From: Oscillospiraceae bacterium
GTDB taxonomy: Bacteria; Bacillota; Clostridia; Oscillospirales; JAKOTC01
DNA length: 63,823 nucleotides
Reading direction: 5' to 3'
Assembly (NCBI GenBank): GCA_035353335.1
Contig: DAOPZJ010000005.1
Span: 8,530-72,352, forward strand
In this document: piece after piece, positions 14,139 through 59,472 of the stretch
How the letters are laid out: every line of letters starts with the position of its first letter
Numbering within the stretch: position 1 is the stretch's first letter
The notes under the pieces: generated by a model
The model's database searches: none
What the model saw: the letters and a program-made list of their open reading frames with translations, nothing else
What the model was told of the DNA's origin: nothing
Position numbers and translations under genes: made by a program

Positions 14139-14141
14139 ATT

Positions 14142-35859: not shown

Positions 35860-37605
35860 TCAGAACTTTTTGCGGGCGACGTAGGAAGTGTGCAGCACTT
35901 CATGCGCTTTGTGGCTGCCGGGTTTGTCAAGGAACTCTTTGTAGAGCCGGATGATGTCCGGGTTCTGGTGGGAACGGCGAATGGTGTTGCGCTCGTCGTT
36001 TCTGTAAAGCGCCGAAGAACGCAGGCCGATCAGATCGGTCCAGCTGCGCACATCCGCGGATTGCTGCGGCTGACCGCCGCCGTTGATGCAGCCGCCCGGG
36101 CAGCACATGATTTCGATAAAGTGGATGTTCTCGCCGGCTTTGACACGTTCAAGCAGTTTGCGCGCGTTGCCGGTGCCGCTTGCGACGGCCACGTTGATGT
36201 CCATTCCGGCGACTTTGTAAGTGGCGGTCTTGATGCCGTCGGCGCCTCTGACTTCGTTAAAGACGACCATCTTGTCGTCTTCCTTGCCGGTCAGGGTGCT
36301 GACCGCGGTACGCAGAGCCGCTTCCATAACGCCGCCCGTCGCGCCGAAGATGACCGCCGCGCCGCTGGAAGAACCGAGCGGATGGTCAAAGTCGCTGTCG
36401 GGCAGGTTGACGAAATCGATGCCGGCCAATTTCACCATACGCGCATATTCGCGGGTGGTCAGTGCGATGTCGACGTCCGGGACGCCGGCGGCGTCCTGAT
36501 CGGGTCTGCCGACTTCGAACTTTTTGGCGGTGCAGGGCATAACCGAAACACAGACGATGTTCTTGGGGTCGATGTTGTTTTTTTGCGCAAAATAGGTTTT
36601 GACGATTGCGCCGAACATCTGCTGCGGAGATTTGCAGGTCGAGAGATTCGGGATCATCTCGGGATAATAATGTTCGCAGAACTTGATCCAGCCCGGCGAG
36701 CAGGAGGTGATCAGCGGGAGCGCGCCGCCGTTTTGAATGCGCTCGATCAGCTCATTCGCCTCTTCGACGATGGTCAGGTCGGCCGAGAAGTTGGTATCAA
36801 AGACCCGGTCAAATCCCAGACGGCGCATTGAAGTGGCCATCTTGCCGGTGACGTCGGTGCCGATCGGCATTCCGAAACACTCGCCGAGCGTGGCGCGGAT
36901 CGACGGGGCGGGGAAGACGACGACGAACTTATTCGGGTCACTCAGCGCCGCATTGACCTCGTCTGCCTGATCCTTTTCATAGATCGCGCCGGTCGGGCAG
37001 GAGACGATGCACTGTCCGCAGGAGACGCAGGCGACGTCGCCGAGCGGGCGGTCAAACGAGCAGCCCACATGGGTGTCGAAGCCGCGGTTGACAAGGCCGA
37101 TCACGCCGATTTCCTGAACCTTTTCGCAGGCGGAGATGCAGCGGCGGCACAGAATGCATTTGGAGTCGTCGCGGATCATGTGCACCGCGGAATTGTCATA
37201 AATCGTCTCATCGGGGACGGTGGAATATTTATCTTCGTCTACGCCGTAATCGTGGCACAGCGCCTGAAGCTCACAGCTGCCGCTGCGGATACAGGACAGA
37301 CATTTTTTATTATGGTTGGAAAGGATCAGTTCCAGCGTGGCTTTACGGGATTGGTGGAGTTTTTCGGTGTTGGTCTTGACCTCCATCCCCTCGGTGACGG
37401 GATGCATACAGGCGGCGACAAGGCCTCTCGCGCCGGACGCTTCCACCACGCAGATGCGGCAGGAGCCGACTTCGTTGACGCCTTTGAGATAGCAAAGGGT
37501 GGGGATTTTTACGCCGGCTGCATGGGCAGCTTCCAGAACGGTGGTACCGTCCGGGACGCTGACGCTGATGCCGTCGATTTTGACGTTGAGCATTTTGGGT
37601 TCCAT
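35860..37605 (-). CDS. hydA: [FeFe]-hydrogenase catalytic subunit HydA (2Fe-2S, His-ligated 4Fe-4S, two 4Fe-4S, and H-cluster domain)
   Basis: H-cluster motifs are ITSCSPGW (L1), VMPCTAKKFE (L2) and EIMCCPGGCINGGGQP (L3). The N-terminal ferredoxin-like domains are present. The start is at MEPKML after GGGGAGGAA. Confidence 0.93.
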   Translation of the reverse strand: MEPKMLNVKIDGISVSVPDGTTVLEAAHAAGVKIPTLCYLKGVNEVGSCRICVVEASGARGLVAACMHPVTEGMEVKTNTEKLHQSRKATLELILSNHNKKCLSCIRSGSCELQALCHDYGVDEDKYSTVPDETIYDNSAVHMIRDDSKCILCRRCISACEKVQEIGVIGLVNRGFDTHVGCSFDRPLGDVACVSCGQCIVSCPTGAIYEKDQADEVNAALSDPNKFVVVFPAPSIRATLGECFGMPIGTDVTGKMATSMRRLGFDRVFDTNFSADLTIVEEANELIERIQNGGALPLITSCSPGWIKFCEHYYPEMIPNLSTCKSPQQMFGAIVKTYFAQKNNIDPKNIVCVSVMPCTAKKFEVGRPDQDAAGVPDVDIALTTREYARMVKLAGIDFVNLPDSDFDHPLGSSSGAAVIFGATGGVMEAALRTAVSTLTGKEDDKMVVFNEVRGADGIKTATYKVAGMDINVAVASGTGNARKLLERVKAGENIHFIEIMCCPGGCINGGGQPQQSADVRSWTDLIGLRSSALYRNDERNTIRRSHQNPDIIRLYKEFLDKPGSHKAHEVLHTSYVARKKF

Positions 37606-37621
37606 ATCGTTATTCCTCCCC

Positions 37622-39406
37622 TTATTTCTTATCAATGGCGTAGAACTTGCAGTTGGACATGCAGAGTCCGCACTTGATGCACTTGTTCTGATCGATCACG
37701 TGTTTCTCTTTGACGGTGCCGGTGATGGCGTTCGTCGGGCAGTTGCGCGCGCAGAGCGTGCAGCCCTTGCACTTATCGTTGATGGTGTAGGTCGTGAGTG
37801 CTTTGCAGACGCCGGCCGGGCACTTCTTATCGACGACGTGGGCGACGTATTCGTCGCGGAAATATTTGAGTGTGGAGAGCACGGGGTTCGGCGCGGTCTG
37901 GCCCAGTGCGCAGAGGGAATTCTGCTGGATGTGGCGGCACAGGGCTTCCATCTTGTCGAGGTCTTCAAGAGTGCCTTTGCCGGAAGTGATTTTTTCAAGC
38001 ATCTGATACAGGCGCTTGGTGCCGATGCGGCAGGGCACGCACTTTCCACAGGACTCGTCGACCGTGAATTCGAGGAAGAACTTCGCGATGTCGACCATGC
38101 AGTTGTCTTCGTCCATGACGATCAGACCGCCGGAGCCCATCATAGAGCCGATGGCGACGAGGTTTTCATAGTCGATCGGGATGTCGAGGTGCGCGGCCGG
38201 AATGCAACCGCCGGAAGGACCGCCGGTCTGCGCCGCTTTGAACTTTTTGCCGTTCGGGCAACCGCCGCCGATGTCTTCGATGATCTCGCGCAAAGTCGTG
38301 CCCATCGGGACTTCGACAAGGCCGGTGTTGGTGATCTTGCCGCCGAGCGCGAAGACCTTGGTGCCCTTGGATTTTTCGGTGCCCATCGAGGCGAACCATT
38401 CCGCGCCTTTGATGATGATCTGAGGGACGTTGGCATAGGTCTCGACGTTATTGAGGATGGTGGGCTTTCCGAACAGGCCCTTGACCGCCGGGAACGGAGG
38501 ACGCGGACGCGGCTCGCCGCGGTTGCCCTCTACCGAGGTTAACAGCGCGGTCTCTTCGCCGCAGACAAACGCGCCGGCGCCGAGGCGGATGTCGAGGTCG
38601 AACGAGAAGTCGGTGCCCATGATATTATTACCGAGCAGGCCGTATTCACGCGCCTGTTTGATGGCGATTTCAAGACGATGGACGGCGATGGGGTACTCCG
38701 CACGGACATATATGTAACCGTGGGTGCCGCCGATAGCGTAAGCCGCGATGGTCATGGCTTCAAGAACCGCGTGCGGGTCGCCTTCGAGGACCGAACGGTC
38801 CATGAACGCGCCCGGGTCGCCTTCGTCGGCGTTGCAGCAGACATATTTGACGTCGCTGGCGTTTGCGGCGGCAAACTGCCATTTCCGTCCGGTCGGGAAG
38901 CCCGCGCCGCCTCTGCCGCGCAGACCCGAGTCGGAGATGACTTTGATGACGTCTTCGGGCTTCATCGAAGTCAGCACCTTTTCAAGCGCGAGGTAGCCGT
39001 CCATAGCGATGTATTCGTCGATGCTCTCGGGGTTGATGACGCCGCAGTTGCGCAGCGCGATGCGTTTTTGCTTTTTATAGAAAGGCGTGTCGGACAGCGA
39101 GAGCATCTTGTCCTTTTCAATTGCCTCGGAATAGATCAGGCGTTTGACGGGACGGCCTTTGAGCAGATGCTCCTGTACGATTTCCCTGACGTCGCTTTTC
39201 TTGACCTGGCTGTAGAAAGTGCCCTCGGGGTAGATGATCATGATCGGACCGAGCGAACAAAGACCGAAACAGCCGGTTTTGACGACTTTTACTTCTTCGG
39301 CAAGTCCGGCGGCGGCGATTTCTTTCTCCATCTCGGCCGCGATTTCATGAGAGCCGGAAGAAGAACAACCTGTGCCGGTGCAGCACAGAACCTGTGATCT
39401 TATCAT
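37622..39406 (-). CDS. hydB: NADH-binding flavoprotein subunit HydB (NuoF-like, with N-terminal 2Fe-2S and C-terminal 2x[4Fe-4S])
   Basis: GLRGRGGAGFPTGRKW (FMN/NADH site), ESCGKCVPCR, and C-terminal CKGCTLCARNCP and CIKCGLCMSNC. The start is at MIRSQVL, 7 nt after AAAGGAG. Confidence 0.93.
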   Translation of the reverse strand: MIRSQVLCCTGTGCSSSGSHEIAAEMEKEIAAAGLAEEVKVVKTGCFGLCSLGPIMIIYPEGTFYSQVKKSDVREIVQEHLLKGRPVKRLIYSEAIEKDKMLSLSDTPFYKKQKRIALRNCGVINPESIDEYIAMDGYLALEKVLTSMKPEDVIKVISDSGLRGRGGAGFPTGRKWQFAAANASDVKYVCCNADEGDPGAFMDRSVLEGDPHAVLEAMTIAAYAIGGTHGYIYVRAEYPIAVHRLEIAIKQAREYGLLGNNIMGTDFSFDLDIRLGAGAFVCGEETALLTSVEGNRGEPRPRPPFPAVKGLFGKPTILNNVETYANVPQIIIKGAEWFASMGTEKSKGTKVFALGGKITNTGLVEVPMGTTLREIIEDIGGGCPNGKKFKAAQTGGPSGGCIPAAHLDIPIDYENLVAIGSMMGSGGLIVMDEDNCMVDIAKFFLEFTVDESCGKCVPCRIGTKRLYQMLEKITSGKGTLEDLDKMEALCRHIQQNSLCALGQTAPNPVLSTLKYFRDEYVAHVVDKKCPAGVCKALTTYTINDKCKGCTLCARNCPTNAITGTVKEKHVIDQNKCIKCGLCMSNCKFYAIDKK

Positions 39407-39423
39407 GGCTTTTCTCCTTTCGC

Positions 39424-39795
39424 TCATTTCAGAGCGTCTTCGATCGTATATTCGACGACCGGACGATGATTGACGAGATGCTCCGTGACGACTCTGGCGA
39501 CCTTGTCCGCATCCATCTTCACATAGGTGACTTTTTCTTTATTGGGCTCATAGACCTCGACGATCGGCTCAAGGCGGCAGACGCCGATGCAGCCGGTTTG
39601 GGTCACGGAGATGTTCTTGAGACCGCGTTTGTTGATTTCGTCGATAAAAGCGGCGAGAACGGGTCTTGCCCCGGCTGCGATGCCGCAGGTTGCCATGCCG
39701 ACGACGACGCGGATATTGTCATCGCTCTCCTCGCGAAGTTCGATGGTTTTTCTGGTTTTTTCGCGGATTGCCGCAAGTTCAGCCAAAGTTTTCAT
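39424..39795 (-). CDS. Thioredoxin-like [2Fe-2S] ferredoxin (HndB-like small subunit)
   Basis: VVGMATCGIAAGA...TGCIGVCRLEP. The ATGA overlaps the upstream gene. Confidence 0.8.
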   Translation of the reverse strand: MKTLAELAAIREKTRKTIELREESDDNIRVVVGMATCGIAAGARPVLAAFIDEINKRGLKNISVTQTGCIGVCRLEPIVEVYEPNKEKVTYVKMDADKVARVVTEHLVNHRPVVEYTIEDALK

Positions 39796-41661: not shown

Positions 41662-41987
41662 TCTTTCAGCAGTTCATAGGTCGCGGCCGCCGTTTCATAG
41701 GCGGATCTGTCGGTTCTGAAAATCGGGAGCTCCAGCTTTTCCGCGCGTTCCGCGAGTTCCGGGTCGGGTTTGACGCCTTCGCATAATACCACACAGGCGA
41801 CTTCGGTCATCGAGGCGACTGCCGCGACGTTCACGTTGGACATGATGGTCAGCCAGACCTGGCCGGCGCTTGCCCGGCCCATGACCCAGCTGAGTAAATC
41901 GCCGATATAGCAGCCGGTGATCGCGCGGTCTTTGCCGGTGCTGACGGTCTCGAGGTTCAGCGTTTTGGCATAAGCGTCAGTCGTCAT
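41658..41987 (-). CDS. DRTGG-domain protein
   Basis: ITGCYIGDLLSWVMGRA..VWLTIMSNVNVAAVA..VACVVLCEG is typical of small DRTGG proteins. Confidence 0.7.
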   Translation of the reverse strand: MTTDAYAKTLNLETVSTGKDRAITGCYIGDLLSWVMGRASAGQVWLTIMSNVNVAAVASMTEVACVVLCEGVKPDPELAERAEKLELPIFRTDRSAYETAAATYELLKE

Positions 41988-43311
41988 CGCGGCTCAGCTC
42001 CTCATAGGATTTTTCGGTGTCATAATAGAGCGCAAGCTGTTCCGGCGTGAGGTTTTTGCGGATATGGCGCAGCTTTTCGCGCATCAGGTAGACGCACAGG
42101 CTCAGCGAGGACTTTCCGCGCACCACGTCTTCCGCCAGCGCCGCGCAGGTCGGCGCGCCGCAGGCTCCGCAGTCGAGTCCCGGAAGCAGCTCGGTCAGCC
42201 GTTCAATTTCGAGCATCATCTTCATGGCCTCGTCGAGGTTGTCGCTGAGTTTGACGCTCGGTTTCGCCTTGTGTTTTCCGGCGGCAGGTGAGAGTGGGGA
42301 AGGCAAGTCGCCGCTCTTGTTCTGAGAGACCGGCATATACCGCCGAAGGGACTTCAGCCGGGATTTGGCGATGAACGGATTCTCGACGGTCAGACAACCG
42401 CCCACGCAGCCCGAGGTGCAGGCGTTCAGCTCAATGAAATCGACGCCGGTGAGCTTGTCGTCCTCGATTTGTTCGAGTATCTTGATCGCGTTTTCAATGC
42501 CGTCCGCGGCGAGATATTTGTCGGTCAGAAGACCTCCGGCCTCACCGCCGCTGATAGCCCAGGAGACGCCCAGAATCCCGCTTTTTTGAAGCGGAGCCGG
42601 ATCTTGGATATGGTTCATCGCGCTGACGAGCCTGATATAGATCTCGCTCATCGAAAACGCGCCGTTGATGAGCTGCTCGTTGGTATTCGGATGTAAGATC
42701 GCCTCGGTTACTTTAGCCGGGCAGGGTGAGATGAAAAATACGCCGATCTCCTCCTGCGAAAGCCCCGTCTTCTCGGCGGCCTGTTTGCGCGCCATCATCG
42801 CGGCCAGTTCGACCGGTGCGATGAAAGGCAGGATATTATCGCATAAGTGGTGGAAACGGGTCTCGATCAATCGCACGATTGCCGGGCAGGCGCCGGAAAT
42901 GACCGGTTTTTTGATGTCCGGCTGCGCCATGTAAGTGCGGGTGAAATCGGAGATGATCTCGGCGGCGGCGCTGACTTCGAACACCGCGTCAAAGCCCATC
43001 GCGAGTAAACCGGACAATACGAAATCCACGTCTTCGAGGTGGTTGAACTGACAATAGAGCGAGGGCGGGGGCAGGGCGATTTTATATTTGTATTTGGAGT
43101 TTTTCAGTTCGGTGAGCGGCGTGCAGATAGCCTTTTTGGCGTGATTCGGGCAGACCCGGATACATTCGCCGCAGTCGATGCACAAATCCTCCAAAATTTT
43201 GGCCTTGCCGTCGCGGATGCGGATGGCCTGGGTCGGGCAGCGCTTGATGCAGGTGCTGCAGCCCTTGCATTTGTCTTTGTTTAATTGAACGGAATGAAAA
43301 ATTTCCGCCAT
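41977..43311 (-). CDS. [FeFe]-hydrogenase-like protein (2x[4Fe-4S] plus a variant H-cluster-like domain plus a C-terminal CX2CX4C Fe-S domain); putative sensory hydrogenase
   Basis: CKGCSTCIKRCP and CIDCGECIRVCP. The H-domain motif variants are VISGACPA (L1), FISPCPAKVTE (L2) and ELNACTSGCVGGC (L3). The C-terminus has LDCGACGAPTCAALA. Confidence 0.8.
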   Translation of the reverse strand: MAEIFHSVQLNKDKCKGCSTCIKRCPTQAIRIRDGKAKILEDLCIDCGECIRVCPNHAKKAICTPLTELKNSKYKYKIALPPPSLYCQFNHLEDVDFVLSGLLAMGFDAVFEVSAAAEIISDFTRTYMAQPDIKKPVISGACPAIVRLIETRFHHLCDNILPFIAPVELAAMMARKQAAEKTGLSQEEIGVFFISPCPAKVTEAILHPNTNEQLINGAFSMSEIYIRLVSAMNHIQDPAPLQKSGILGVSWAISGGEAGGLLTDKYLAADGIENAIKILEQIEDDKLTGVDFIELNACTSGCVGGCLTVENPFIAKSRLKSLRRYMPVSQNKSGDLPSPLSPAAGKHKAKPSVKLSDNLDEAMKMMLEIERLTELLPGLDCGACGAPTCAALAEDVVRGKSSLSLCVYLMREKLRHIRKNLTPEQLALYYDTEKSYEELSRDDD

Positions 43312-45096: not shown

Positions 45097-47688
45097 ATGA
45101 ACACCAATCAATATACACAAAAGACCATTGAGACCATCAACGCGGCACAGGGCATGGCACAGGAAAACGGCAATCCGTACCTGATGCCCGAGCATCTGTT
45201 GTACGCTTTAGTCGATCAGGACGGCGGGCTGATTTCGTCGCTGTTTACAAAGATGGGCGTCGACTGCGACGCGCTTCTCGGCGAACTCGACACGATGATC
45301 GGCGCGCTGCCCAAGGTCTCGGGCGGCAGCGGGGAAGTGTACGCCTCCGCCGAAACCGGAAAAGTACTTCGGTTTGCCGAGAAGGTCGCCGAGAAGATGA
45401 ACGACGAATACGTCTCGGTCGAGCATCTGGCGCTCGGCCTTCTCTCCGAGGGCACACCGCAGATCAAAAAGCTGTTTTCGCAGCACAACGTCACAAAAGA
45501 GCGTTTCTCCGAAGAACTCTCGAAAGTCAAGACCGCGCCGGTGACCTCGGACAACCCCGAGAGCACTTATGAAGCGCTGAAAAAATACGGCATTGATCTG
45601 GTCGAACGGGCCAGAAAGCAGGAGCTCGATCCGGTCATCGGGCGTGACCCCGAGATCAGAAACGTCATCCGGATACTGTCGCGCAAGACCAAAAACAATC
45701 CGGTGCTCATCGGCGAACCGGGCGTCGGCAAGACCGCCATCGCCGAGGGGCTTGCGCAGCGCATCGTGCGCGGCGACGTCCCCGAGGGCCTTAAAGAAAA
45801 AACCATCTTTGCGCTCGATATGGGTGCTCTGATCGCGGGCGCGAAATACCGGGGTGAATTCGAAGAACGGCTCAAAGCGGTGCTGAACGAGGTCAAACAA
45901 GCCGAGGGCAGGATCATCATGTTCATCGACGAGCTGCATACCATCGTCGGTGCCGGGAAAACCGAGGGCAGCATGGATGCGGGCAACCTGCTCAAACCGA
46001 TGCTTGCGCGCGGAGAGCTGCACTGCATCGGTGCGACGACCCTCGACGAATACCGCAAATACATCGAAAAAGACGCGGCATTGGAGCGGCGTTTTCAGCC
46101 GGTCACGGTCGACGAGCCGACGGTTGAGGACACGGTCTCGATTCTGCGCGGCTTGAAAGAACGCTACGAAATCTACCACGGCGTCCGTATTCACGATAAC
46201 GCGCTGGTTGCAGCCGCAACCCTCTCACACCGCTATATCACCGACCGCTTTCTGCCCGATAAGGCCATCGACCTCGTCGACGAGGCCTGTGCTTTGATCC
46301 GTACCGAGATTGACTCAATGCCGTCCGAACTGGACGACCTGCGCCGCCGCATCATGCAGCTGGAGATTGAGGAGATGGCGCTGAAAAAGGAAGACGACCA
46401 ACTTTCGCGCGACCGGCTTTCCAAACTGACCGCCGAACTGGCCGAACAAAAAGACCAGTTTAATGCTATGAAAGCACGCTGGGAGTCCGAAAAGCACAGC
46501 GTCGATCGGGTCAAGGACATCAAAGTAAAGATCGAGCAAATGCACGGCGACATCGAGCAGGCGCAGGTCAATCTCGAATACGAAAAAGCCGCAAAGCTCA
46601 AATACTCCGATCTGCCCGCGCTCGAAAAACAGCTTGAACAAGCCGTTGCCGACAGCGAAAAGCGCTCCGGCGGCAATGAACTCGTGCACGATACCGTCAC
46701 CGAGGAGGAGATCGCCGGAATCGTCGCCAAGTGGACCGGAATTCCGGTCACAAGGCTCATGGAAGGCGAGCGCGAAAAGCTGCTGCACCTCGATGAGATC
46801 ATACACAAGCGTGTGATCGGACAGGACGAAGCCGTCAAACTCGTCACCGAGGCGATTCTGCGTTCGCGCGCGGGCATCGCCGACCCGAACCGCCCGATCG
46901 GCAGCTTTTTGTTTCTCGGGCCGACCGGCGTCGGCAAAACCGAACTCGCCAAATCGTTAGCCGAATGTCTGTTCGACGACGAACACAACCTCGTGCGCAT
47001 CGATATGACCGAATACATGGAAAAATTCTCAGTCTCGCGCCTCATCGGCGCGCCTCCCGGTTATGTCGGTTACGACGAAGGCGGACAGCTGACCGAAGCC
47101 GTGCGCCGCAAACCCTACAGCGTCATACTGTTTGACGAGGTCGAAAAGGCTCATCCCGATGTTTTCAACATCCTGCTGCAAATCCTCGACGACGGCAGAA
47201 TCACCGACAGCCAGGGCCGCACGGTCGATTTCAAGAACACCATCATCATCCTGACCTCGAATCTGGGCAGCCAGTATCTGCTCGAGGGCATCACGCCCGA
47301 AGGTGAGATCACCAAAGAGGCGCAGGCGGCAGTCATGAACGAGGTCAAAAACGCTTTCAGACCGGAATTTTTGAATCGTTTGGACGAGATCATCCTGTTC
47401 AAGCCGCTGACAAAAGCCAACCTGACCGGCATCATCGACATCCTGACCGAGGGCTTGAAAAAACGCCTTGCCGACAAGACGCTCGGACTCGAGATCACCG
47501 ACGCAGCCAAGAACCTGATCATCGACAAAGGTTTCGACCCTTACTACGGCGCAAGGCCGCTTAAACGGTATCTGCAGAGCGCAGCCGAGACGCTGATCGC
47601 AAAGGAGATCCTGCGCGGCGACATCTCCGCCGGCAGCACGCTTTTGCTCGGCGCAAAAGACGGCGAACTGGTCTGCGCAAAGAAATAA
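45097..47688 (+). CDS. clpB: AAA+ disaggregase ClpB
   Basis: 863 aa, with the Clp N-domain, two NBDs ([10 protein letters not shown] and [12 protein letters not shown]) and the long middle coiled-coil. Confidence 0.97.
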
Positions 47689-48492: not shown

Positions 48493-49140
48493 CTAAATTA
48501 AAATTTTTCTGAGCGTCTCCATGTTTTCGACAATATGCGCAGCACCGGCTTTTTCAAACTCTTCCCGGCTGCCGTAACCGTATAACACGCCGATGGAATC
48601 CATACCGACCGCTTTCGCGCCCAGGACGTCGTGTTCCCGGTCACCGACCATCACGCATTCAGCCAAGTTTACAGGGCCGATGCTGTCAAGCGCATATTCA
48701 ATGACCTCGCTTTTTACGGTTCTTGTCTCATCGAGGGTGGAACCGGCGACAAACGAAAAATATTCCGCAAGCCCGAAATGCTCTAAAATTTGTTTGGCGA
48801 AGACCTCGGGTTTCGAAGTCGCGATAACAAGCGTCTTTTCGGCGGCTTTCAATTCGGCTAAAAGCTTTTTTATGCCCGCGTAAGGCACATTTTCAAAAAT
48901 TCCTTTATCTTTGAAATATTCACGAAAACAGACAACCGCTTTTTCGGCTTGCTCTCGTGAAAACCCGTAGAATTTCATAAATGAATCGATCAGCGGCGGG
49001 CCGACAAACGGGTAGAGCTGTTTATTGTCCCCGACATGAATTCCGAACCGCTCCAATGCATATTTGACCGAGTTGGTGATACCCAGCCCCGGGTCGGTCA
49101 GCGTACCGTCGAGATCGAATAGTATTATTTTATAACTCAT
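48493..49140 (-). CDS. HAD-IA family hydrolase (phosphoglycolate-phosphatase-like)
   Basis: ILFDLDGTLTD, ATSK and VGDREHD. Confidence 0.85.
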   Translation of the reverse strand: MSYKIILFDLDGTLTDPGLGITNSVKYALERFGIHVGDNKQLYPFVGPPLIDSFMKFYGFSREQAEKAVVCFREYFKDKGIFENVPYAGIKKLLAELKAAEKTLVIATSKPEVFAKQILEHFGLAEYFSFVAGSTLDETRTVKSEVIEYALDSIGPVNLAECVMVGDREHDVLGAKAVGMDSIGVLYGYGSREEFEKAGAAHIVENMETLRKILI

Positions 49141-49684
49141 ATTCCGCGACCTCGCAGTTATTCAGCGTAAAACCATGCATTTCTTCATAAGAAAGCCCTT
49201 TGAGCTGTTTGTTTATCATCCGCGAGACAAATCCGTGGCATACCAACAGCACGGTTTTATCCGGAAACCGTGTTTTCAATTCTTCTAAACCCGAAATAAT
49301 CCCGGCTTCAAACTGGCGGATGGTCTCGCCTCCGGTCGGTGCATCGTCGAGTTGTCTGGTACACCATCTGTTGAAAAGTTCGGGGTATTGATTTTTCGCC
49401 TCTTCTTTTGTCAATCCCTCAAACACGCCCACACTCCGCTCTGCGAAAATTTTTATGATCACAAGCGGTGTTTCCGGGCAGCGATTTAAAATTGTCTCGG
49501 CAGTTTTGCGCGCACGGGCTAACGGGGAAGAGACGGTGACGTCGAATTTGATATCTGCGAGTTTTTGCGCAAGCGCTTCGGCTTGTTGAAGACCGTTTTG
49601 ATTCAGCGGAACGTCACTGCTTCCCGCATATTTTCCTTGAACGTTGTTATCGGTCTCTCCGTGCCGGGCAACATATAAGTGCAT
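49130..49684 (-). CDS. Histidine phosphatase family protein (PGAM/CobC-like)
   Basis: LYVARHGETDNN (RHG motif) and VCHGF. Confidence 0.85.
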   Translation of the reverse strand: MHLYVARHGETDNNVQGKYAGSSDVPLNQNGLQQAEALAQKLADIKFDVTVSSPLARARKTAETILNRCPETPLVIIKIFAERSVGVFEGLTKEEAKNQYPELFNRWCTRQLDDAPTGGETIRQFEAGIISGLEELKTRFPDKTVLLVCHGFVSRMINKQLKGLSYEEMHGFTLNNCEVAEYEL

Positions 49685-49778
49685 AAATAAGATAAATACC
49701 TTTCTCTTAGCGAAAAACGGTGACGGCAGGTTGTGTCGTCACCGCTTTTATGATTCATTTAATTCGGGTTAATTACAA

Positions 49779-50420
49779 TTACATTTTGCCTTCGCAGATT
49801 TTCAGAGCGACTTCCGCAGCGGAAGCGGCGTCCGGTGTGTAGTAATCGGCGCCGACCTGTTTGCAGAACGCGTCGGTGACAGGCGCTCCGCCGACCATGA
49901 TCTTGACCTTGTTGCGGATGCCTTCTTTTTCAGCCACTTTGACGACGTCGCCGATGGCACCCATTGTGGTGGTCAGCAGCGCGGAGCAGCAGATGATCTG
50001 GCAGTTCTGGGTCTTGGCGGCTTCGACAAAGGTCTCGGGAGCGACGTCGGTGCCGAGGTCGACGACTTCGATGCCCTGGCCTTCGATCATCATCTTGACG
50101 AGGTTCTTGCCGATGTCATGCAGGTCGCCCTTGACGGTGCCGATGCAGACTTTGCCTTTGGCCTGTACGCCCTCAGCCACCATCAGCGGCTTGAGCAGCG
50201 CGACGCCGGCGTTCATTGCACGGGCGGCGATCAGAACTTCGGGGACGTAGACTTCGTTGTTCTTGAATTTGGTGCCGATGATGGTCATACCGGCGAGCAG
50301 GCCTTTATCAAGAATTTGACCGGCCGGGATTTTCTGGTCGATGGCGCTTTGGACGAGGGCTTCGACGTCCTTCCGTTTACCCTTTTGAAGCATCTCGGAA
50401 ATTTCTTCGAAAATTGTCAT
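49779..50420 (-). CDS. Cobalamin-binding corrinoid protein (MtaC/MtbC-like)
   Basis: An N-terminal B12-binding_2 helical cap is followed by GTVKGDLHDIGKNLV (DxHxxG) and GGAP. Confidence 0.88.
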   Translation of the reverse strand: MTIFEEISEMLQKGKRKDVEALVQSAIDQKIPAGQILDKGLLAGMTIIGTKFKNNEVYVPEVLIAARAMNAGVALLKPLMVAEGVQAKGKVCIGTVKGDLHDIGKNLVKMMIEGQGIEVVDLGTDVAPETFVEAAKTQNCQIICCSALLTTTMGAIGDVVKVAEKEGIRNKVKIMVGGAPVTDAFCKQVGADYYTPDAASAAEVALKICEGKM

Positions 50421-50566
50421 TGCAATTCCTCCGTGCAAATTTGTCGTTTCTATTACCGCTTGGCGGTTGTTATCATTTTATCACAATGAAAAATGAAATT
50501 TTATAAAAATATTTCGATTTATATAAATATCATCCTGTATGGATACTATTGTGAATACCGAATCGA

Positions 50567-52204
50567 TTATTTTGTCGTCTGCTTTTCGACGAGCCGTCCG
50601 CCGCAGTATTTTTCGCGCAGTTTGGGCTTTTCGATTTTACCGGTCGGATTGCGCGGCACAACGTCGAAGATGAATTTTTTCGGTCGTTTATAACGCGGCA
50701 TCTCGGCGCAGAATTCCTCGAGCTCGGTTTCGGTGCAGGTCATGCCGGGCTTGACCTCGACAATGGCGGCAGCGATTTCACCCAGCCGGTCATCCGGAAG
50801 ACCGATAACAGCCACGTCTTTAAGCTTGTTATTTCGGCGCAAATAATCCTCGATTTGAACGGGGTAGAGGTTTTCTCCGCCTGTGATGATCACGTCTTTT
50901 TTACGGTCGACGAGGTAGATGAAGCCGTCCCCGTCGTATTTTGCCATATCGCCGGTCAGCAGCCAGCCGTCGCCTTTTAAAATCTCCTCGGTCGCCTTGG
51001 GGTTCTTATAATAACGCTTCATCACGCCGACGCCTTTGACTGCCAGTTCGCCGACTTTTTCGCTCTCTTTGATTTCCGTGCCCGTCTCGTCGACGATCTT
51101 GGTCTCCCACAGATATCCGGCTTTTCCGATTGCGCCGACTTTATGGATATTCTCGATACCCAAATGGACACAACCCGGTCCGAGAGATTCGGACAGCCCG
51201 TAATTGGTGTCGTAGTCGTGATGCGGGAAGACCTGCTTCCAGCGTTTGATCAGACTCGGCGGTACCGGCTGCGCGCCGACGTGCATCAGCCTCCACTGAG
51301 CGAGGTTGAAATTTTCAAGCTTGATATCGCCGCGTTCGATGCTGTCCAGGATATCCTGCACCCACGGCACCAGCAGCCAAACGATGGTCGCGTGCTCATC
51401 CGAAACCGCGCGCAAGACCCATTCCGGTTTGACGCCGCGCAGTAAAACGGCTCTCGAGCAAGCCAGCAAGCTGCCGAACCAGTGCATCTTCGCGCCGGTG
51501 TGGTAGAGCGGGGGAATGCAGAGAAACACATCTTCACGGCCTTGGCTGTGGTGGTTTTGCTCGGTCTGGCAAGAGGCCACAAGCCCCTTGTGCGTATGTA
51601 AAATCGCTTTCGGAAATCCGGTCGTTCCCGACGAGAAATAGATGGCGGCGTCGTCGTCTTCGGTCAGTTCGATCGCCGGCGCAACCGAGGAACAATAACC
51701 GGCGTATTCGTCGTAACTGTCGGCGAAACACGGCGTATCGGCACCGACATAGAACATGCGTTTGATGTCGGTCAGAGAATCGACGATCTGCTCGATCCTT
51801 CCGACGAATTCCGGCCCGAAAATCAAAGTCGTCGAGTCCGACAGATCAAGACAGTATTTGATCTCGTCCGCGGTGTAGCGGTAATTCATCGGCACCGCGA
51901 GCGCGCCCGTTTTGAGGATGCCGAAATAGATCGGCAGCCACTCGAGGCAGTTCATCAGCAAGACCGCGACTTTATCACCCTTTTTCACGCCTCTGCTCAG
52001 CAGAAGATTGGCAAACCGGTTGGCTTTGATGTCGAAATCGCGCCAGGTCATCTCGCGGCGGTATTTTCCGCCCGGCGCCGATTCGATCAGATTATATTCG
52101 CGCCAGGTCACATGCTCGGGGTGCAGGGCGGGGTTGATCTCGACCAGCGCCACCTCGGTCGGGTGCAAACGCGCGTTTCGCTCCAAAAAATCGGTGATAA
52201 TCAT
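50567..52204 (-). CDS. AMP-dependent synthetase/ligase (acyl- or aryl-CoA ligase family)
   Basis: AMP-binding motif YFSSGTTGFPKAIL, then YGLSE, LLTGDMAKYDGDGFIYLVDRKKDVIITGGENLYP and PRNPTGKIEK. Confidence 0.9.
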   Translation of the reverse strand: MIITDFLERNARLHPTEVALVEINPALHPEHVTWREYNLIESAPGGKYRREMTWRDFDIKANRFANLLLSRGVKKGDKVAVLLMNCLEWLPIYFGILKTGALAVPMNYRYTADEIKYCLDLSDSTTLIFGPEFVGRIEQIVDSLTDIKRMFYVGADTPCFADSYDEYAGYCSSVAPAIELTEDDDAAIYFSSGTTGFPKAILHTHKGLVASCQTEQNHHSQGREDVFLCIPPLYHTGAKMHWFGSLLACSRAVLLRGVKPEWVLRAVSDEHATIVWLLVPWVQDILDSIERGDIKLENFNLAQWRLMHVGAQPVPPSLIKRWKQVFPHHDYDTNYGLSESLGPGCVHLGIENIHKVGAIGKAGYLWETKIVDETGTEIKESEKVGELAVKGVGVMKRYYKNPKATEEILKGDGWLLTGDMAKYDGDGFIYLVDRKKDVIITGGENLYPVQIEDYLRRNNKLKDVAVIGLPDDRLGEIAAAIVEVKPGMTCTETELEEFCAEMPRYKRPKKFIFDVVPRNPTGKIEKPKLREKYCGGRLVEKQTTK

Positions 52205-52234
52205 GTCGTTTTACAGTCCTTTCAGAAAATAAAT

Positions 52235-52545
52235 AAAATAAAACGCCCCCGTTACGGGATGCATACTTGTCAGCATGCGCCGTAATAACGGAGGGCGATC
52301 AAATTCGCGGTACCACCTCGGTTTGCGTCCGGTTCGCGCCGGACGCCTCTGCGGGTACAAAACGACGATCTGTCATTTTATATCCTGCCGCTGTAACGGG
52401 CGGGCCCGTCGCCGCCTACTCGGAAGTCCTTTCGGGGCGCGGCTCTCGGGATGTATTCAAAAGGGCTCTCCCCGCGCCTCTCACCGACCGGCAGCTCTCT
52501 TTGGGGCAGCGTACTTTTTACTTCTTCCCGGTCATGGCCGGTGCA
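52235..52545 (-). promoter_or_regulatory. T-box riboswitch leader, apparent specifier UAC (Tyr)
   Basis: In order on the minus strand: a GA/K-turn-like base; AG bulge AAAGAGAG; specifier loop TTGAATACAT (UAC is the complement of 52453-52455); Stem II S-turn GAGTAGG; F-box CCGTTA; Stem III GCGTCCGG/CCGGACGC; and T-box AACCGAGGTGGTACCGCG (complement of 52306-52317). A terminator CGCCCTCCGTTA...TAACGGGGGCG plus TTTTATTTT competes with the antiterminator. Confidence 0.85.
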
Positions 52546-52548
52546 AAA

Positions 52549-52577
52549 ATTGTAGCATATTGTAAAACGGATGTCAA
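52549..52577 (-). promoter_or_regulatory. Promoter of the T-box leader
   Basis: On the minus strand: TTGACA (52577-52572), a 17-nt spacer, then TACAAT (52554-52549). Confidence 0.6.
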
Positions 52578-52747
52578 ATGATTTATAAAAGTACGTTATG
52601 ACTTTCATTTACTGAAGGCTTCCTGTTTTATATGCGCTTTCTTTTATATACGAGGAAAATACTCGGATTCCGTTAAATATTTATGTAAATCAGGAGAGAC
52701 GATTGTCAACTGGTTAGACAATTGGCGAACCATTTAATAAAATTACT

Positions 52748-52796
52748 AAAAAATCCGATCATTAAGAGTTTCGTCTTAATAGGATCGGGTTTTTTA
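52748..52796. terminator. Bidirectional terminator downstream of the PaaK-like gene
   Basis: AAAAAATCCGATCATTAAGAG, a loop, then GTCTTAATAGGATCGGGTTTTTT. Confidence 0.7.
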
Positions 52797-52831
52797 AGGT
52801 ATTTTCCTGATACCGAAAATAACAGTATGTA

Positions 52832-54142
52832 TTAGTTGTTAAACAAGTTTCTCCGGTCGATCACGCGCTTGGCTTTGCCCTCGCTTCTCGGAATCGATTT
52901 CGGGGCGACGAGCCGGACGTCGGCGTTGATGTTGAGAACCGACTGGATCTGGCTCTGCAGTTTGCGCTCAACGGCTTCGACCCGGTCAATCTTATCGGAG
53001 AACATCTCGGATGTCATTTCAACCTCGATCGAGAGTTCGTCGAGATTGCCCTTGCGGTCGACGTAGAGCATATAATGCGGCTCAACCTGACCCATCGAGA
53101 GTAAAACGCTCTCAACCTGAGACGGGAAGACGTTGACGCCGCGGATGATCAGCATGTCGTCACTTCTGCCGATGACCTTTTTCATCTTGGGAAGCGTTCT
53201 GCCGCATTCGCAGGTGCCGAAAGATAACGACGAGAGGTCGCGGGTGCGGTAGCGGATCATCGGAAGCGCTTCTTTGGTGATGCAGGTGAACACGATTTCA
53301 CCGGTCTGACCTTCGGGCAGCACTTCGCCGGTCTCGGGATTGATGATCTCGGGGTAAAAATGGTCGGCGTTGACGTGCAGGCCTTCGCCGTAGTTGCAGG
53401 ACATCGCGACGCCCGGTCCGATGACCTCAGAGAGGCCGTAGATGTCGTAGGCCTTGAGTCCGAGCCGCTGCTCGATCTCGTCTTTCATCAGTTCCGACCA
53501 CGGCTCCGCGCCGAAGACGCCGGCCTTGAGTTTAAGCGACGAAAGCGGGATATTGTTGTCGCGGATGTAGTCGGCCAAGAACAGCGAATAAGACGGCGTG
53601 CAGCATAAAATGGTCGAACCCAAATCCTGCATCAGCTGAATCTGACGCGCGGTGTTGCCGCCGGAAGTCGGGATGGTCAGCGCGCCCAGACGCTCGCTCC
53701 CGTAATGCAGGCCCAGGCCGCCCGTGAAAAGCCCGTAGCCGTAAGAGACCTGAATGATGTCGTGTTTCGAAGCGCCGGCCATGACCAGACAGCGCGCCAC
53801 GCAGTCGGCCCACATTTTGACGTCGTTTTTGGTGACGCCGACGATGATGGATTTTCCGGTCGTTCCGGACGAGGCATGGATGCGGACAATTTGATCGTTC
53901 GGGACGGCAAAGGTGCCAAAGGGATAATTGTCGCGCAGATCGGCCTTGGTCATGAACGGGAGCTTATGTAAGTCCTGCACCCCTTTGATATCGGAGGGTT
54001 TCAGGCCGCATTGATCCATTCTGTCGTGATAAAATCGTACATTATTATAGACCCGGTTCACCGTATTGCAGAGACGCTCATCCTGGAGCTTCTTCATCTC
54101 ATCTGCGGACATGCATTCGTGTTTCTGGTCAAAATAACGCAT
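52832..54142 (-). CDS. Phenylacetate--CoA ligase family protein (PaaK / F390-synthetase-like)
   Basis: LQDERLCNTVNRVYNNVRFYHDRM, LPFMTKADLRDNYPFG, HASSGTTGK and RSDDMLIIRGVNVFP. The start is at MRYFDQ after AAAGGTGG. Confidence 0.88.
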   Translation of the reverse strand: MRYFDQKHECMSADEMKKLQDERLCNTVNRVYNNVRFYHDRMDQCGLKPSDIKGVQDLHKLPFMTKADLRDNYPFGTFAVPNDQIVRIHASSGTTGKSIIVGVTKNDVKMWADCVARCLVMAGASKHDIIQVSYGYGLFTGGLGLHYGSERLGALTIPTSGGNTARQIQLMQDLGSTILCCTPSYSLFLADYIRDNNIPLSSLKLKAGVFGAEPWSELMKDEIEQRLGLKAYDIYGLSEVIGPGVAMSCNYGEGLHVNADHFYPEIINPETGEVLPEGQTGEIVFTCITKEALPMIRYRTRDLSSLSFGTCECGRTLPKMKKVIGRSDDMLIIRGVNVFPSQVESVLLSMGQVEPHYMLYVDRKGNLDELSIEVEMTSEMFSDKIDRVEAVERKLQSQIQSVLNINADVRLVAPKSIPRSEGKAKRVIDRRNLFNN

Positions 54143-54351
54143 TGAAAATACCACCTTTACTAAAGTATGTAAATTAATGCAGGAGAAAACCCAAAAAAGG
54201 AATGACGTTTTCCCACATTTTAATGGATTATATCACACTGTCCCGTGCTGCGCAAGCAATTTTACCCAAAATCGACAATTTATTCTGTAATTTTATGCAA
54301 TTAATACGAATTTTAATTCAAATCAGTCCAAGCAGTGTCTGATCGGTGCGG

Positions 54352-55041
54352 TTACTCCGTCTTACCCGAATAGGGGGCTCTTCTTCCGGGACAGTTGGGC
54401 ATCGGACAGAACTTGCAATTTTCGTAGTGCGATTCGAACGCATTCGATGCGCTTGAAAAATAAAAACCCGATACCGTTTTCGAGGGCAGCATCAGAAGCG
54501 AATCGGTCAGTACCACGCCGATGTCTTCGATGACGTTTCCGATCAGGTTAAATAACGGAATCTGCCCGGATAACGGCCAGTCCGCAAGCGATCCGGGACT
54601 CATATGCGAGAGGTCCTGCGCCGGAAAATAGGCCGATTTGACGGTTTTTTGCAAGTCCGCGTAACATTTGAACAGAACCAGCTTTTTCAGTTCGTCAGCC
54701 CAGAACTGTTCAAGCAGATCGGTAAATTGACGCGACCACTCTTCAATTTCGACGCCGCAAGTGGCCACATAAGGGACAATCCGATGTACCTTGTCAAGGT
54801 TTCTGCGCACCAGTTTGGAGTCAAACCGCTGTCCTCCGGCCACGACGAAACCGTCGCCCTTTTCTTCGATGGCGCTGATACAGTATATATATTTCGGACG
54901 CGCAATTCCGAGAGCCTGCGAGAGCAGTTCCGTCACGCGGATATAATCTTCGCCGCCGGGGTCGCGTTTCATATCGATCGCTTTGAGAAAATCCTCTTCG
55001 GTAACGTTGAATTTGATGTCATTGACAATGTGTTTTTCCAT
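54352..55041 (-). CDS. Methionine-synthase activation-domain-like protein (PF02965-like) with a C-terminal Cys cluster
   Basis: The size and overall pattern resemble stand-alone vitamin-B12-dependent methionine synthase activation-region proteins of Clostridia. It ends CKFCPMPNCPGR. The assignment is from memory only. Confidence 0.45.
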   Translation of the reverse strand: MEKHIVNDIKFNVTEEDFLKAIDMKRDPGGEDYIRVTELLSQALGIARPKYIYCISAIEEKGDGFVVAGGQRFDSKLVRRNLDKVHRIVPYVATCGVEIEEWSRQFTDLLEQFWADELKKLVLFKCYADLQKTVKSAYFPAQDLSHMSPGSLADWPLSGQIPLFNLIGNVIEDIGVVLTDSLLMLPSKTVSGFYFSSASNAFESHYENCKFCPMPNCPGRRAPYSGKTE

Positions 55042-56554: not shown

Positions 56555-57625
56555 TCAGTTTAAATTTTCATACCGTATTTCAGTCAGACGGAGCCGCTGC
56601 AAACAGCCCTCGTCTTTCGCGCCGCCGCAGCAATAAGCCAAAAACATGCGGTCGGTTTCGGGATGGATCGCGCAGTAACAATAGCCCGCTTCGGGATCGT
56701 CCTCAATTAAAAACGTCTTTTCGATTTTTGTGATCTCCTGATTCACCAGCGCGCCGACCAGCGGGGTTCGTCCCCAGCCGGCTTTGGATAGGTTTCTGGT
56801 ATTATAGTTCGGAATGGGATTATAGACCGCGAACAGCCTCCCGTCCGGCAGCCGTTTCATCGAAAGCGGAGAAAGCGGGGCGGTGAATATTGAAGGTTTG
56901 GGGATACTCCAGGTTTCTCCCCCGTCAAAGGAGAGCATTTCATATTGCCTTCCCAGATCCGTCCGGATCCAGCAATAAAGCCGCTCGTCCGATAGTTCAA
57001 TGATACCCGGCTCCTGATAGCCGTTTTGATCGAACCTGCTTTCGGGGACACTCATACCGCCGAGATTGCTCCAGGTTTTGCCGCCGTCGTCGGAGCAGGT
57101 GAAGCGAACGGTTCCGCCGGGGTTGAAAACTCCCGCGGCCAAATCATTTTTATGCAGGGAACAGGGAACAATCAAACGTCCGCTTTTGAGCCGCACCACC
57201 CGGTCGTTGTTGGTGACGTTGTAGCCGGGTTCGGGGATACAGCACACCGGCTGATCCCATGTCTTTCCCTCATCATGACTGCGAAACAGATGCAGCCGGA
57301 TATCGGAAAGGCCTTCGCCGTTGTCCCGAACGATAAAGAATAGGCCGATATCGCCGTTGTCAAGGCGAAGAAGAGATACGCTCATCACGTTTTTGGTGCC
57401 GAGTGATTTCGCGGAGAACAAAATCTCCGGTTCGCTCCATACGGAACCTTTACACCGGATCGCCGCGATATCGCAGACCGCGAAATCGCCCCAGCTCTCG
57501 CCTTTGAAACGGCTGTATGCAAATAACAACTCCCCGTTTTTTAAGCGCAGAAAAGCACCCTCGCTGTTGCGGGGGTTTCCCGCTGCGGGCGCAAGTTCGT
57601 GAATGGGAGTTCCGATTCTCTTCAT
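56555..57625 (-). CDS. BNR/sialidase-like beta-propeller protein (cytoplasmic)
   Basis: Asp-box repeats SHDEGKTW, SDDGGKTW and SFDGGETW are present, and there is no signal peptide. Confidence 0.75.
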   Translation of the reverse strand: MKRIGTPIHELAPAAGNPRNSEGAFLRLKNGELLFAYSRFKGESWGDFAVCDIAAIRCKGSVWSEPEILFSAKSLGTKNVMSVSLLRLDNGDIGLFFIVRDNGEGLSDIRLHLFRSHDEGKTWDQPVCCIPEPGYNVTNNDRVVRLKSGRLIVPCSLHKNDLAAGVFNPGGTVRFTCSDDGGKTWSNLGGMSVPESRFDQNGYQEPGIIELSDERLYCWIRTDLGRQYEMLSFDGGETWSIPKPSIFTAPLSPLSMKRLPDGRLFAVYNPIPNYNTRNLSKAGWGRTPLVGALVNQEITKIEKTFLIEDDPEAGYCYCAIHPETDRMFLAYCCGGAKDEGCLQRLRLTEIRYENLN

Positions 57626-57687
57626 TTAATACCTCTGACGGGATGCGGCGCGGGCGAGAGCCCGCGCCGCAATGATTCTGATCTGAA

Positions 57688-59472
57688 TTATTTGTACATC
57701 GGGCCGTAGTACCCGCAGGCGCGGTAATCGGCCGATTCAAGATCGTCGGTTCCGAATGCCGACCAGGCGTGCGGGCGGAAGACCCGCTCGTCCCCGACGT
57801 TGTGCAGGGCGACCGGAATGCGCAGCATCGAAGCCAGCGTGATCAGTTCCGCGCCGACATGTCCGTAGACGCTCGCGCCGTGGTTGGCGCCCCAGTTGGC
57901 CATGACGCTGTAGACGTCCTTGAACGCGCCTTTGCCGGTCAGTTTCGGCACAAACCAGGTGGTCGGCCAGGTCGGATCGGTGCGCTTGTCGAGTTTTTCG
58001 TGGATATCGTCGGGCAGGATGGCCGAATAGCCCTCGGCAATCTGAAGCACCGGGCCGATCCCGTCGATCATGTTTGCGCGGATCATGGTCAGCGGCATCT
58101 CGGCCTGAGTGCGGAAGTGCGACGAGAATCCGCCGCCGCGGAAATATTCATAGTTGGCTCTGCACCAGTCGGTTGCTTTCAAACAGGCGTCGATGTCCTT
58201 GTCGGTCATATCCCACCACGGCTTCATGCAGCCCTCGCCCTGATCGTTCTTCGCGCAGCCGGTGCCGTCGAGCGCGGTCGCGCCCGAGTTGATCAGATGG
58301 ATAAAGCCGTCCTTTGCGATGCCTTTGGGCGATTTTCCGGTTACGCGTTTGACCGCTTCCGGGCTCCAGTAGGTGCGCACGTCGGAGAAGAGCGGCGCGG
58401 TGTTTGTGACCAAATGTCCGAGCAGCATCGCAATGCCGTTCATGGTATCGTTTTCGGTCGCAAAAGTGACCGGCATGCGCGCGCCGTTCCAGTCAAAGGT
58501 GGAGTTCATGATCGCCTCGGTAAAATCGCCGTTCGGCAGCCAGTCGGTCCAGTTTCTTTGGCCCTGGAAGCCGCCCGCGATGGCGTTTTTGCCGAGCGCT
58601 TCCTCGTGCCAGCCCATCTTGCCGAGTTCGGGGTTGCCGAGCATCACATCGCGCACGATCAAGCTGAATTTGGTGATAAATTCCCAATCCTTGTCGGGTT
58701 CGACGACCTTGGATTTAGTGACGACTTCGGGCAGATTCTTGCCCGCGTTGCAATCAAAGCCCTCCGGGCAGTTCTTTTTAATCCACGCGTAAGCGCGGTC
58801 ATATTCCTTATGGTCGTAAATTTCGAGTTTCATCCGGCGCAGAACTTCGGTCAGATCACACCACTCCGCGCGGATGCCGAGATATCTCTGGAAAAAATTT
58901 GCGTCGCAGTAAGAACCCGCGATGCCCATTGAGACGCCGCCGAAATTGACGTATGATTTATTTTTCATCAAACCGACTGCGATTGCGCAGCGGGCAAATT
59001 TCAATATTTTTTCTGCGACGTCGGGCGTGATGCCGGAGTTTCCGGCGTCCTGAACGTCGCGGCCGTAAATCGAAAATGCGGGCAGACCCTTTTGCGCATG
59101 CGCCGCCATGACCGCAGCCAAATAGACCGCGCCGGGGCGTTCGGTGCCGTTAAAACCCCAAACCGCTTTCACGGTGGTCGGGTCCATATCCATGGTTTCG
59201 CTGCCGTAGCACCAACAGGGGGTCACGGATAAAGTGCCGCAGACGCGTTCGTTATAAAACTTTTCGGCGCATTTGGCGGCTTCTGCGCCGCCGCCGATCG
59301 TCGTGTCGGCAATGACGCACTGAACCGAGGTTCCGTCGGGATATCTGAGATTTTCCGAGATGAGTTTGGCCGCAGCCGAAGCCATCCCCATCGTCTGTTT
59401 TTCAAGCGATTCGCGCACGCCGCCCCAGCGGCCGTCGATGACGGGACGGATGCCGATTTTGGGATATACCAT
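57688..59472 (-). CDS. fucI: L-fucose isomerase
   Basis: 594 aa, starting [21 protein letters not shown], with full-length collinearity to FucI. Confidence 0.93.

Follow-up and report, generated by a model that had tools for sequence, protein, structure and literature searches.

Which amino acid, and which pathway, does a tRNA-sensing switch serve when it is placed in front of a coenzyme A (CoA) ligase gene? The question is raised by a locus of an Oscillospiraceae bacterium (contig DAOPZJ010000005.1 of assembly GCA_035353335.1, positions 8,530 to 72,352; this whole stretch of 63,823 nucleotides is referred to as the window), in which a T-box leader on the minus strand precedes a gene for a 545-residue ligase of the ANL family. 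Unlike the targets of classical T-boxes, this gene encodes neither an aminoacyl-tRNA synthetase nor a transporter, and it does not belong to the classical biosynthetic genes. Our reading, to which we give a probability of about 0.6, is that a tyrosine-sensing T-box controls an aryl-acid-CoA ligase that takes part in ferredoxin-dependent salvage. From the regulation and the gene context we infer that 4-hydroxyphenylacetate is the likeliest substrate.

A scan of the whole window with Rfam recovered a single T-box in the 63.8 kb. It lies at 52288..52544 on the minus strand, matches RF00230 with 105.3 bits (E = 3.3e-22, against a gathering score of 93) and comprises Stem I, Stem II, the IIA/B region with the F-box, Stem III and the antiterminator. 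The match is full length, covering positions 1-219 of the 219 in the model, and is not truncated. In the covariance-model alignment Stem I contains the GA/K-turn (AUGA...GAGC), the specifier-loop S-turn (AGUA / GAA), the AG bulge (AGAGAG) and the distal loop (GGUGAGA), and further 3' come the S-turn of Stem II (GAA...AGUA), the F-box CCGUUA and Stem III. Directly upstream of the start of the match is a sigma-70-type promoter (52549..52577, minus strand; TTGACA, a 17-nt spacer and TACAAT with a TG extension, 11/12 matches), which is the top promoter-like site between positions 50000 and 55000.

The downstream half of the leader contains the two competing structures that are typical of the class. 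Both the sequence and the covariance-model alignment place the T-box sequence, AACCGAGGUGGUACCGCG, at 52306..52323 (minus strand), with a UGGU bulge at 52315..52312 that is predicted to bind uncharged tRNA by its A73-CCA end. The structure line of the alignment gives an antiterminator helix at 52291..52319 on the same strand, built from GAGG, the bulge, GCGA-loop-UCGC and CCUC. Folding predicts an intrinsic terminator at 52226..52297 (minus strand), with a stem from 52297 to 52244 that encloses an inner hairpin and is followed by the U-tract UUUUAUUUUAUUUAUUUU. The fold has an energy of -36.5 kcal/mol (z = -3.06 relative to dinucleotide shuffles, one of 200 of which was as stable), and its inner part was also flagged as terminator-like in a promoter and terminator scan of 50000..55000. 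The 5' arm of the terminator and the 3' strand of the antiterminator are the same segment, CGCCCUCC, and the two helices are therefore mutually exclusive. The ligase ATG follows at 52204, about 22 nt past the U-tract, with GAAAGGA in front of it. Judged from its sequence, the RNA is a complete transcription-attenuating T-box and a member of RF00230 in which every testable feature is present. An initial annotation, made from the letters of the window, had listed all canonical elements on the minus strand and had named the RF00230 model as the check; each element was recovered by the Rfam match, the promoter scan or the fold, and the model score is above the gathering score over the full length of the model.

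The specifier is the feature that assigns the switch to an amino acid. The covariance-model slot contains UAC (Tyr) at 52453..52455 on the minus strand, after the S-turn GAA and before a single A and the helix strand UCCC. The posterior probability of the alignment around this triplet is only moderate. Across 28 related leaders the triplet columns read U in all 28, A in 25 or U in three, and C in all 28, while the flanking columns vary; the leaders before the ligase accordingly call Tyr in 25 of 28 and Phe in the other three. The position of the triplet relative to the adjacent stem is also conserved. Exactly one nucleotide separates the triplet from a 4-bp helix that is paired in 31 of 32 leaders, in ten variants that include GGGA/UCCC, GGAA/UUCC, GGGG/CCCC, GAAC/GUUC, GAAA/UUUC, GGAG/CUCC, GAAG/CUUC and AGAA/UUCU, and its loop-proximal pair also changes in a compensatory manner. 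By the usual rule, positions 2-4 of the loop, counted from its 3' end, form the specifier, and specifier triplets commonly end in C (TBDB paper). The helix boundary combined with this rule sets the register as UAC (Tyr), or UUC (Phe) in the variants. Covariance-model alignments of the other leaders agree on this register, including both 'GAAUUACC' cases, L051 and L066. The tyrosine specifier that had been called from the letters is thus upheld by the alignment to the model and by the helix register, and the comparison of orthologous leaders that had been suggested along with it gives the same triplet pattern. One leader, L005 (5634-5908), is ambiguous: an extra base separates UAC from the helix (GAAUACGA followed by UCCG), the model puts ACG (Thr) in the specifier slot, and it is the sole leader in which the two anchoring rules disagree.

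The UGGU bulge had been offered as a further sign of tRNA-Tyr. The match to a tRNA ending in A73-CCA stands, but it does not single out tRNA-Tyr, as the tRNA-Phe encoded in the window also has A73; the bulge does not discriminate Tyr from Phe and adds nothing to the Tyr call. That tRNA-Phe is part of a minus-strand cluster at 13698-14217 that reads Val-Asp-Phe-Gly-Cys in transcription order, and no tRNA-Tyr gene is present in the window. Two related leaders, L046 (5718-5946, specifier UUC) and L056 (5720-5950, specifier UAC), have a UGGC bulge instead of UGGU, which would pair with a G73 discriminator rather than with A73.

The regulated gene (50567..52204, minus strand) encodes a class-I adenylate-forming acyl/aryl-CoA ligase of 545 residues, with matches to PF00501 (229.6 bits) and PF13193 (38.1 bits), in agreement with its first description as an AMP-dependent synthetase/ligase of that length. 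The core motifs of the ANL family (A3, A5, A7, A8 and the A10 lysine) are intact, as SSGTTGFPKA, YGLSE, TGD, DRKKD..GGENL and PTGKIEK. Since the protein carries PF13193 instead of PF14535, it is not PaaK. Among NCBIfam models PRK06187 (long-chain-fatty-acid-CoA ligase) scores best, with 392.4 bits where the cut-off is 476; every NCBIfam match listed for the protein stays below its cut-off, and no equivalog is passed. The nearest solved relatives by sequence are FadD13, at the top, and FadD5, feruloyl-CoA synthetase and 4-coumarate-CoA ligase, at 22-28% identity. A Foldseek comparison of the AlphaFold model (pLDDT 73) with the PDB returned FadD13, MatB and the feruloyl-, 4-coumarate- and benzoate-CoA ligases, at no more than 28% identity. 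The ligase thus has the same fold and catalytic motifs as FadD13, 4-coumarate-CoA ligase and feruloyl-CoA synthetase, with identities of only 22-28%. Because identity is low and no curated cut-off is reached, a substrate is not transferable by homology, and sequence and fold comparisons of this kind do not give the substrate of the ligase. A protein search found at least 8000 candidates, the best 120 of which, those listed, are 74-91% identical to the ligase; the database names of the listed homologues are mostly absent or 'acyl-CoA ligase', with 'long-chain acyl-CoA synthetase' also in use.

The proposed operation of the switch follows from the anatomy of the sequence and the established T-box mechanism. 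Transcription from the promoter at 52577..52549 would enter a canonical class-I T-box leader. When tRNA-Tyr is uncharged, its anticodon GUA would pair with UAC in Stem I and its A73-CCA end with UGGU, stabilizing the antiterminator, and RNA polymerase would continue into the ligase gene. With tRNA-Tyr charged, the terminator at 52297..52226 would form and transcription would stop. The induced ligase would then form the CoA ester of an aryl acid, most probably 4-hydroxyphenylacetate; reductive carboxylation of 4-hydroxyphenylacetyl-CoA by the indolepyruvate:ferredoxin oxidoreductase IorAB (IOR) would yield 4-hydroxyphenylpyruvate, and transamination of the latter would yield tyrosine. A PaaK-type ligase would likewise serve the branch from phenylacetate to phenylalanine. 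The aryl-acid route itself is established, and it is a classical finding that rumen anaerobes form phenylalanine from phenylacetate (Allison 1965, cited in PMC7356843). For Bacteroides, the AMP-forming ligase encoded next to IOR has been shown to be an arylacetate-CoA ligase, with a suggested part in biosynthesis (PMC13285125).

Orthologs of the ligase were collected from one genome per species, which gave 80 loci with 68-91% identity to the 545-residue protein. Most come from uncultured Oscillospirales and other Clostridia, and some from Kiritimatiellia, Lentisphaeria/Victivallales, Syntrophomonadaceae and one Smithella bin. A T-box lies directly before the ligase, or in L044 before a transporter-ligase pair, in 27 of the 80 loci, a count that includes L001 and L074, which are not among the leaders scored with Rfam. 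The gathering score is reached by 24 of the 27, and L027 falls below it. The loci with a T-box are spread over several subclades of the ligase tree, and the same arrangement of T-box and ligase occurs in two metagenomic loci, L127 and L167. Among the 28 leaders before the ligase there was no Trp specifier. An ordinary Trp (UGG) T-box is present elsewhere in L065 (2448-2687), before a TrpRS gene and a TrpB-like pyridoxal-phosphate enzyme, 3 kb upstream of the Tyr T-box/ligase operon of that locus; all three aromatic specifiers thus occur across these loci. Open reading frames of 76-104 residues without a Pfam match were called over the T-box leader on either strand (window 52267-52581, plus strand; L161/L162 9597-9827) and are almost certainly an artefact of the structured RNA.

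The operons of the relatives supply a context for the ligase. With synteny called by tblastn with reference proteins, the ligase adjoins at least one of a transporter, IorA, IorB, a PaaK-type ligase and an ACT-pair protein in 40 of the 80 loci, and IorA follows the ligase in 28. IorA and IorB both pass NCBIfam equivalog cut-offs (TIGR03336, 699.9 vs 650.9, and NF005325, 267.5 vs 230, respectively). The transporter slot is occupied by an SSF symporter or, in three loci, by an MFS monocarboxylate-type carrier, whose top model is a lactate/monocarboxylate carrier at a score below the cut-off. A small hotdog thioesterase is often encoded directly upstream; it is closest to PaaI, again below the cut-off. 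Other neighbours are found in individual loci. A fusion of AroK and AroB (shikimate kinase / dehydroquinate synthase) flanks the ligase ortholog in a Victivallales bin (L073, 4275-5885), and class I/II aminotransferases flank it in two Syntrophomonadaceae bins (L031, 904-2175; L079, 7756-8955).

Several operons contain a second, internal T-box. Phe (UUC) T-boxes lie directly before IorA in L049 (9308-9544) and L050 (8365-8603), and directly before a PaaK-ACT pair in L067 (7846-8098), L068 (motif near 4786) and L096 (121-373). A separate promoter-like element, TTGACT...TAAAGT, lies upstream of the internal T-box of L049. A Tyr T-box precedes the ligase of both L049 and L050, in addition to the Phe T-box before IorA; in L067 no T-box was found before the ligase. 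Leaders before the ligase divide into 25 Tyr and three Phe, and those before PaaK or IorA into no Tyr and five Phe (Fisher p = 2e-4, not corrected for relatedness, the five PaaK/IorA cases representing about three lineages).

A second set of 80 metagenome loci, centred on PaaK, contains eight operons in which a second PaaK paralog (47-50% identical) is encoded upstream of IorAB-PaaK-ACT, about 6-7.5 kb upstream of the matched PaaK (L118, L120, L134, L138, L141, L143, L144 and L148). An SSF gene comes first in six of them. The order SSF-paralog-IorA-IorB-PaaK-ACT matches the order SSF-ligase-IorAB-PaaK-ACT of L044 and L131 gene for gene, and no T-box was found in the three of these operons that were scanned (L118, L120 and L134). 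Going by gene order, the paralog and the 545-residue ligase at the same place in the operon look like a case of non-orthologous displacement, with the same kind of job.

Taken with the gene order, the distribution of specifiers leads us to a wider proposal, which we put forward tentatively and at somewhat less than even odds. The missing ligase of the Tyr branch, the one for 4-hydroxyphenylacetate, may be the FadD/4CL-like family, which is conserved at about 70% identity in Clostridia, Kiritimatiellia, Lentisphaeria and Syntrophomonadaceae. The pathway in gut and rumen Oscillospirales would then be split, with a Tyr T-box governing the ligase and transporter and a Phe T-box governing PaaK and IorAB, so that Tyr and Phe would be made on demand from fermentation-derived aryl acids.

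A number of observations weigh against a dedicated 4-hydroxyphenylacetate ligase under tyrosine control. The window has no iorAB: a tblastn search of it for iorA, iorB, ACT, SSF and thioesterase genes and for PaaK found only a PaaK-like gene, and in the closest relative, L001, there is likewise no iorAB near the ligase. The ligases that are closest to that of the window (72-80% identical) are mostly solitary and without a T-box, and their neighbours are unrelated. The genes beside solitary ligases encode a polysaccharide deacetylase, a hexapeptide acetyltransferase, a transglutaminase-like protein, DUF1836, a helix-turn-helix regulator and peptidase M19 and give no hint of function. Eleven operon loci have no T-box, and a scan of their leaders for any Rfam family found none. 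Three leaders before the ligase read Phe and not Tyr. In L049 and L050 nothing but the ligase and the transporter lies behind the Tyr T-box, and IorAB has a Phe T-box to itself, so that tyrosine starvation alone would not induce IOR there. Elsewhere, PaaK-type ligases encoded beside IOR already accept 4-hydroxyphenylacetate, and a second ligase is not strictly needed (PMC13285125). Finally, the sequence and fold of the ligase are about equally distant from fatty-acyl, 4-coumarate, feruloyl, malonyl and benzoate ligases, with FadD13 on top. On balance the salvage model of the initial annotation is supported: Tyr and Phe T-boxes and the transporter/IorAB/PaaK/ACT operons of relatives speak for it, and the lack of iorAB in the window speaks against it. 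The comparative evidence, drawn from sequences, makes what was a speculative model considerably stronger.

The alternative that survives best accepts the T-box as described and the role in aromatic amino acid supply, and assigns the ligase to an aromatic acid other than 4-hydroxyphenylacetate. Phenylacetate or indoleacetate (by broad specificity), 3-(4-hydroxyphenyl)propionate, 4-coumarate and 4-hydroxybenzoate are the candidates. The three Phe specifiers before orthologous ligases would fit such an enzyme, as would the many single T-boxes that cover a whole operon including PaaK, the presence of 4-coumarate-, feruloyl- and benzoate-CoA ligases among the nearest solved structures, and a PadR-type regulator that adjoins the ligase in L045. 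The CoA substrates of IOR, the operon partner, are arylacetyl-CoAs, which argues against this alternative. A Trp specifier is never found before the ligase, and where T-boxes are split they give the ligase Tyr and PaaK Phe. We regard an assignment to another aromatic acid as unlikely, though likelier than the other alternatives.

In the second alternative the enzyme would activate fatty acids or other non-aromatic acyl groups, and the T-box and the neighbouring genes would carry no information on its substrate. This would agree with the database names ('long-chain acyl-CoA synthetase' / 'acyl-CoA ligase'), with PRK06187 as the top NCBIfam model and FadD13 as the top PDB match, and with the many orthologs that are solitary among unrelated neighbours. 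However, the PRK06187 score of 392 falls short of the cut-off of 476 and no equivalog is passed. Tyr and Phe T-boxes in several subclades, together with IorAB/PaaK/ACT synteny in 40 loci, would also be hard to explain, and we consider a non-aromatic substrate improbable.

Very little speaks for a catabolic ligase that would convert arylacetyl-CoA to arylacetate with a gain of ATP in aromatic amino acid fermentation. Other anaerobes do use IOR when they ferment aromatic amino acids oxidatively (PMC13285125), but induction by uncharged tRNA-Tyr would then degrade an amino acid that is already scarce, and AMP-forming ligases favour thioester formation, an argument made in PMC13285125. Genes for phosphotransacylase/kinase or an ADP-forming ligase were not noticed in the operons, in a tblastn survey aimed at the operon proteins, and we judge the catabolic direction highly improbable. 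Equally remote is a specifier read one base later, as ACA (Thr) in the window, ACN in relatives and UCC (Ser) in the 'Phe' variants, with tRNA-Thr being sensed: ACN is contained in every UACN, the posterior around the window triplet is modest and L005 has ACG in the model slot, but we reject this register on the covariation of the helix, whose start lies exactly one nucleotide past UAC or UUC in 31 of the 32 leaders and whose compensatory changes extend to the loop-proximal pair, and it is further disfavoured by the A that follows UAC in the window, by the common pattern of C as third base and by operon genes that are aromatic and unrelated to Thr or Ser.

In the window, the PaaK-type ligase gene that had been noted immediately upstream is present (52832..54154, minus strand) and contains PF14535, and its product is 55% identical to the operon PaaK of L060. 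Its TIGR02155 score (579.7 bits) is below the cut-off of 646.3, and we therefore call it only PaaK-like (phenylacetate-CoA ligase type). It is followed at 52748..52788 (minus strand) by a terminator-like hairpin with a U-tract, read from the sequence as CCGATC...GATCGG and then ATTTTTT. With a hairpin and U-tract of its own between it and the T-box promoter, the PaaK-like gene is transcribed separately and lies outside the control of the T-box.

On the 3' side of the ligase, on the same strand, are genes for a corrinoid (B12-binding) protein that is closest to MtgC/MtbC models, a CobC-like histidine phosphatase and a HAD hydrolase (window 48493-50438). No recognisable terminator was found between the ligase and the corrinoid gene, and an extended -10-like element precedes the latter; read-through from the T-box into the corrinoid gene and beyond is possible. 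The window is a metagenome contig, ERZ795026 NODE_253 at ENA, and the gene order of the ligase region is identical in three further assemblies of this species, including the metagenome-assembled genome GCA_035403805.1. Upstream of the PaaK-like gene, a protein encoded at 54352-55041 (minus strand) has a faint match to the methionine-synthase activation domain.

Other genes of the window lie at a greater distance. HydA/HydB-type [FeFe]-hydrogenase genes are found at 35860-39427 (minus strand), with Fe_hyd_lg_C and a NuoF-like 51K subunit, and a second Fe-hydrogenase-like protein is encoded among DRTGG/HATPase genes at 41977-43311 (minus strand). By gene content the set looks like a bifurcating (HydABC-type) hydrogenase with a sensory or regulatory module, and such genes fit a ferredoxin-based anaerobe. 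Four loci of different lineages, from Clostridia and Kiritimatiellia, have a ClpB gene no more than about 5 kb away from the ligase (window 45097-47688, plus strand; L009 896-3616; L011 933-3653; and the start of L065), which may be a coincidence. A DDE transposase gene (IS240/IS66-like) and fucose/sialic-type glycan genes occupy 32688-33764 (plus strand), 25897-27159 (minus strand) and 56555-59472 (minus strand); the glycan genes encode an alpha-L-fucosidase, a BNR-repeat protein and an L-fucose isomerase that passes the equivalog cut-off.

Compared with known systems, the leader has the same architecture, predicted mechanism and UAC specifier as RF00230 T-boxes such as the tyrS leader of Bacillus subtilis. 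The ligases of the relatives sit in the same kind of cluster as the IorAB-PaaK(-ACT) genes of Bacteroides and methanogens, and the direction from arylacetate to arylpyruvate to amino acid is the same as that suggested for these organisms (PMC13285125). In contrast to those clusters, the ligase described here is a FadD/4CL-like class I enzyme (PF00501 + PF13193) and not of the PaaK type (PF14535); it stands as an additional gene at the head of the operon, under tRNA-sensing control, and in the window it is found without IorAB nearby. We found no publication that links T-box riboswitches to ior operons or CoA ligases, with earlier entries possible in the tables of Vitreschak et al. 2008, TBDB or RegPrecise, and CoA ligases are unmentioned in a genome-wide T-box survey and in the TBDB paper. 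The switch is thus of a known kind, and the class of gene that it regulates appears to be undescribed.

A T-box specifier is a reliable and independent pointer to the amino acid that a gene serves. Here the specifiers tie 'tyrosine', and sometimes 'phenylalanine', to a widespread and unnamed CoA ligase of gut and rumen anaerobes. Combined with the synteny of IorAB, PaaK, ACT and transporter genes, they provide regulatory evidence for the biosynthetic direction of IOR in these Clostridia. The ligase would be a concrete candidate for the activation of 4-hydroxyphenylacetate in the aryl-acid route known from rumen labelling work, and its control by tRNA may be relevant to the cross-feeding of aromatic amino acids in the gut and to how phenylacetate, 4-hydroxyphenylacetate and the precursors of p-cresol are turned over.

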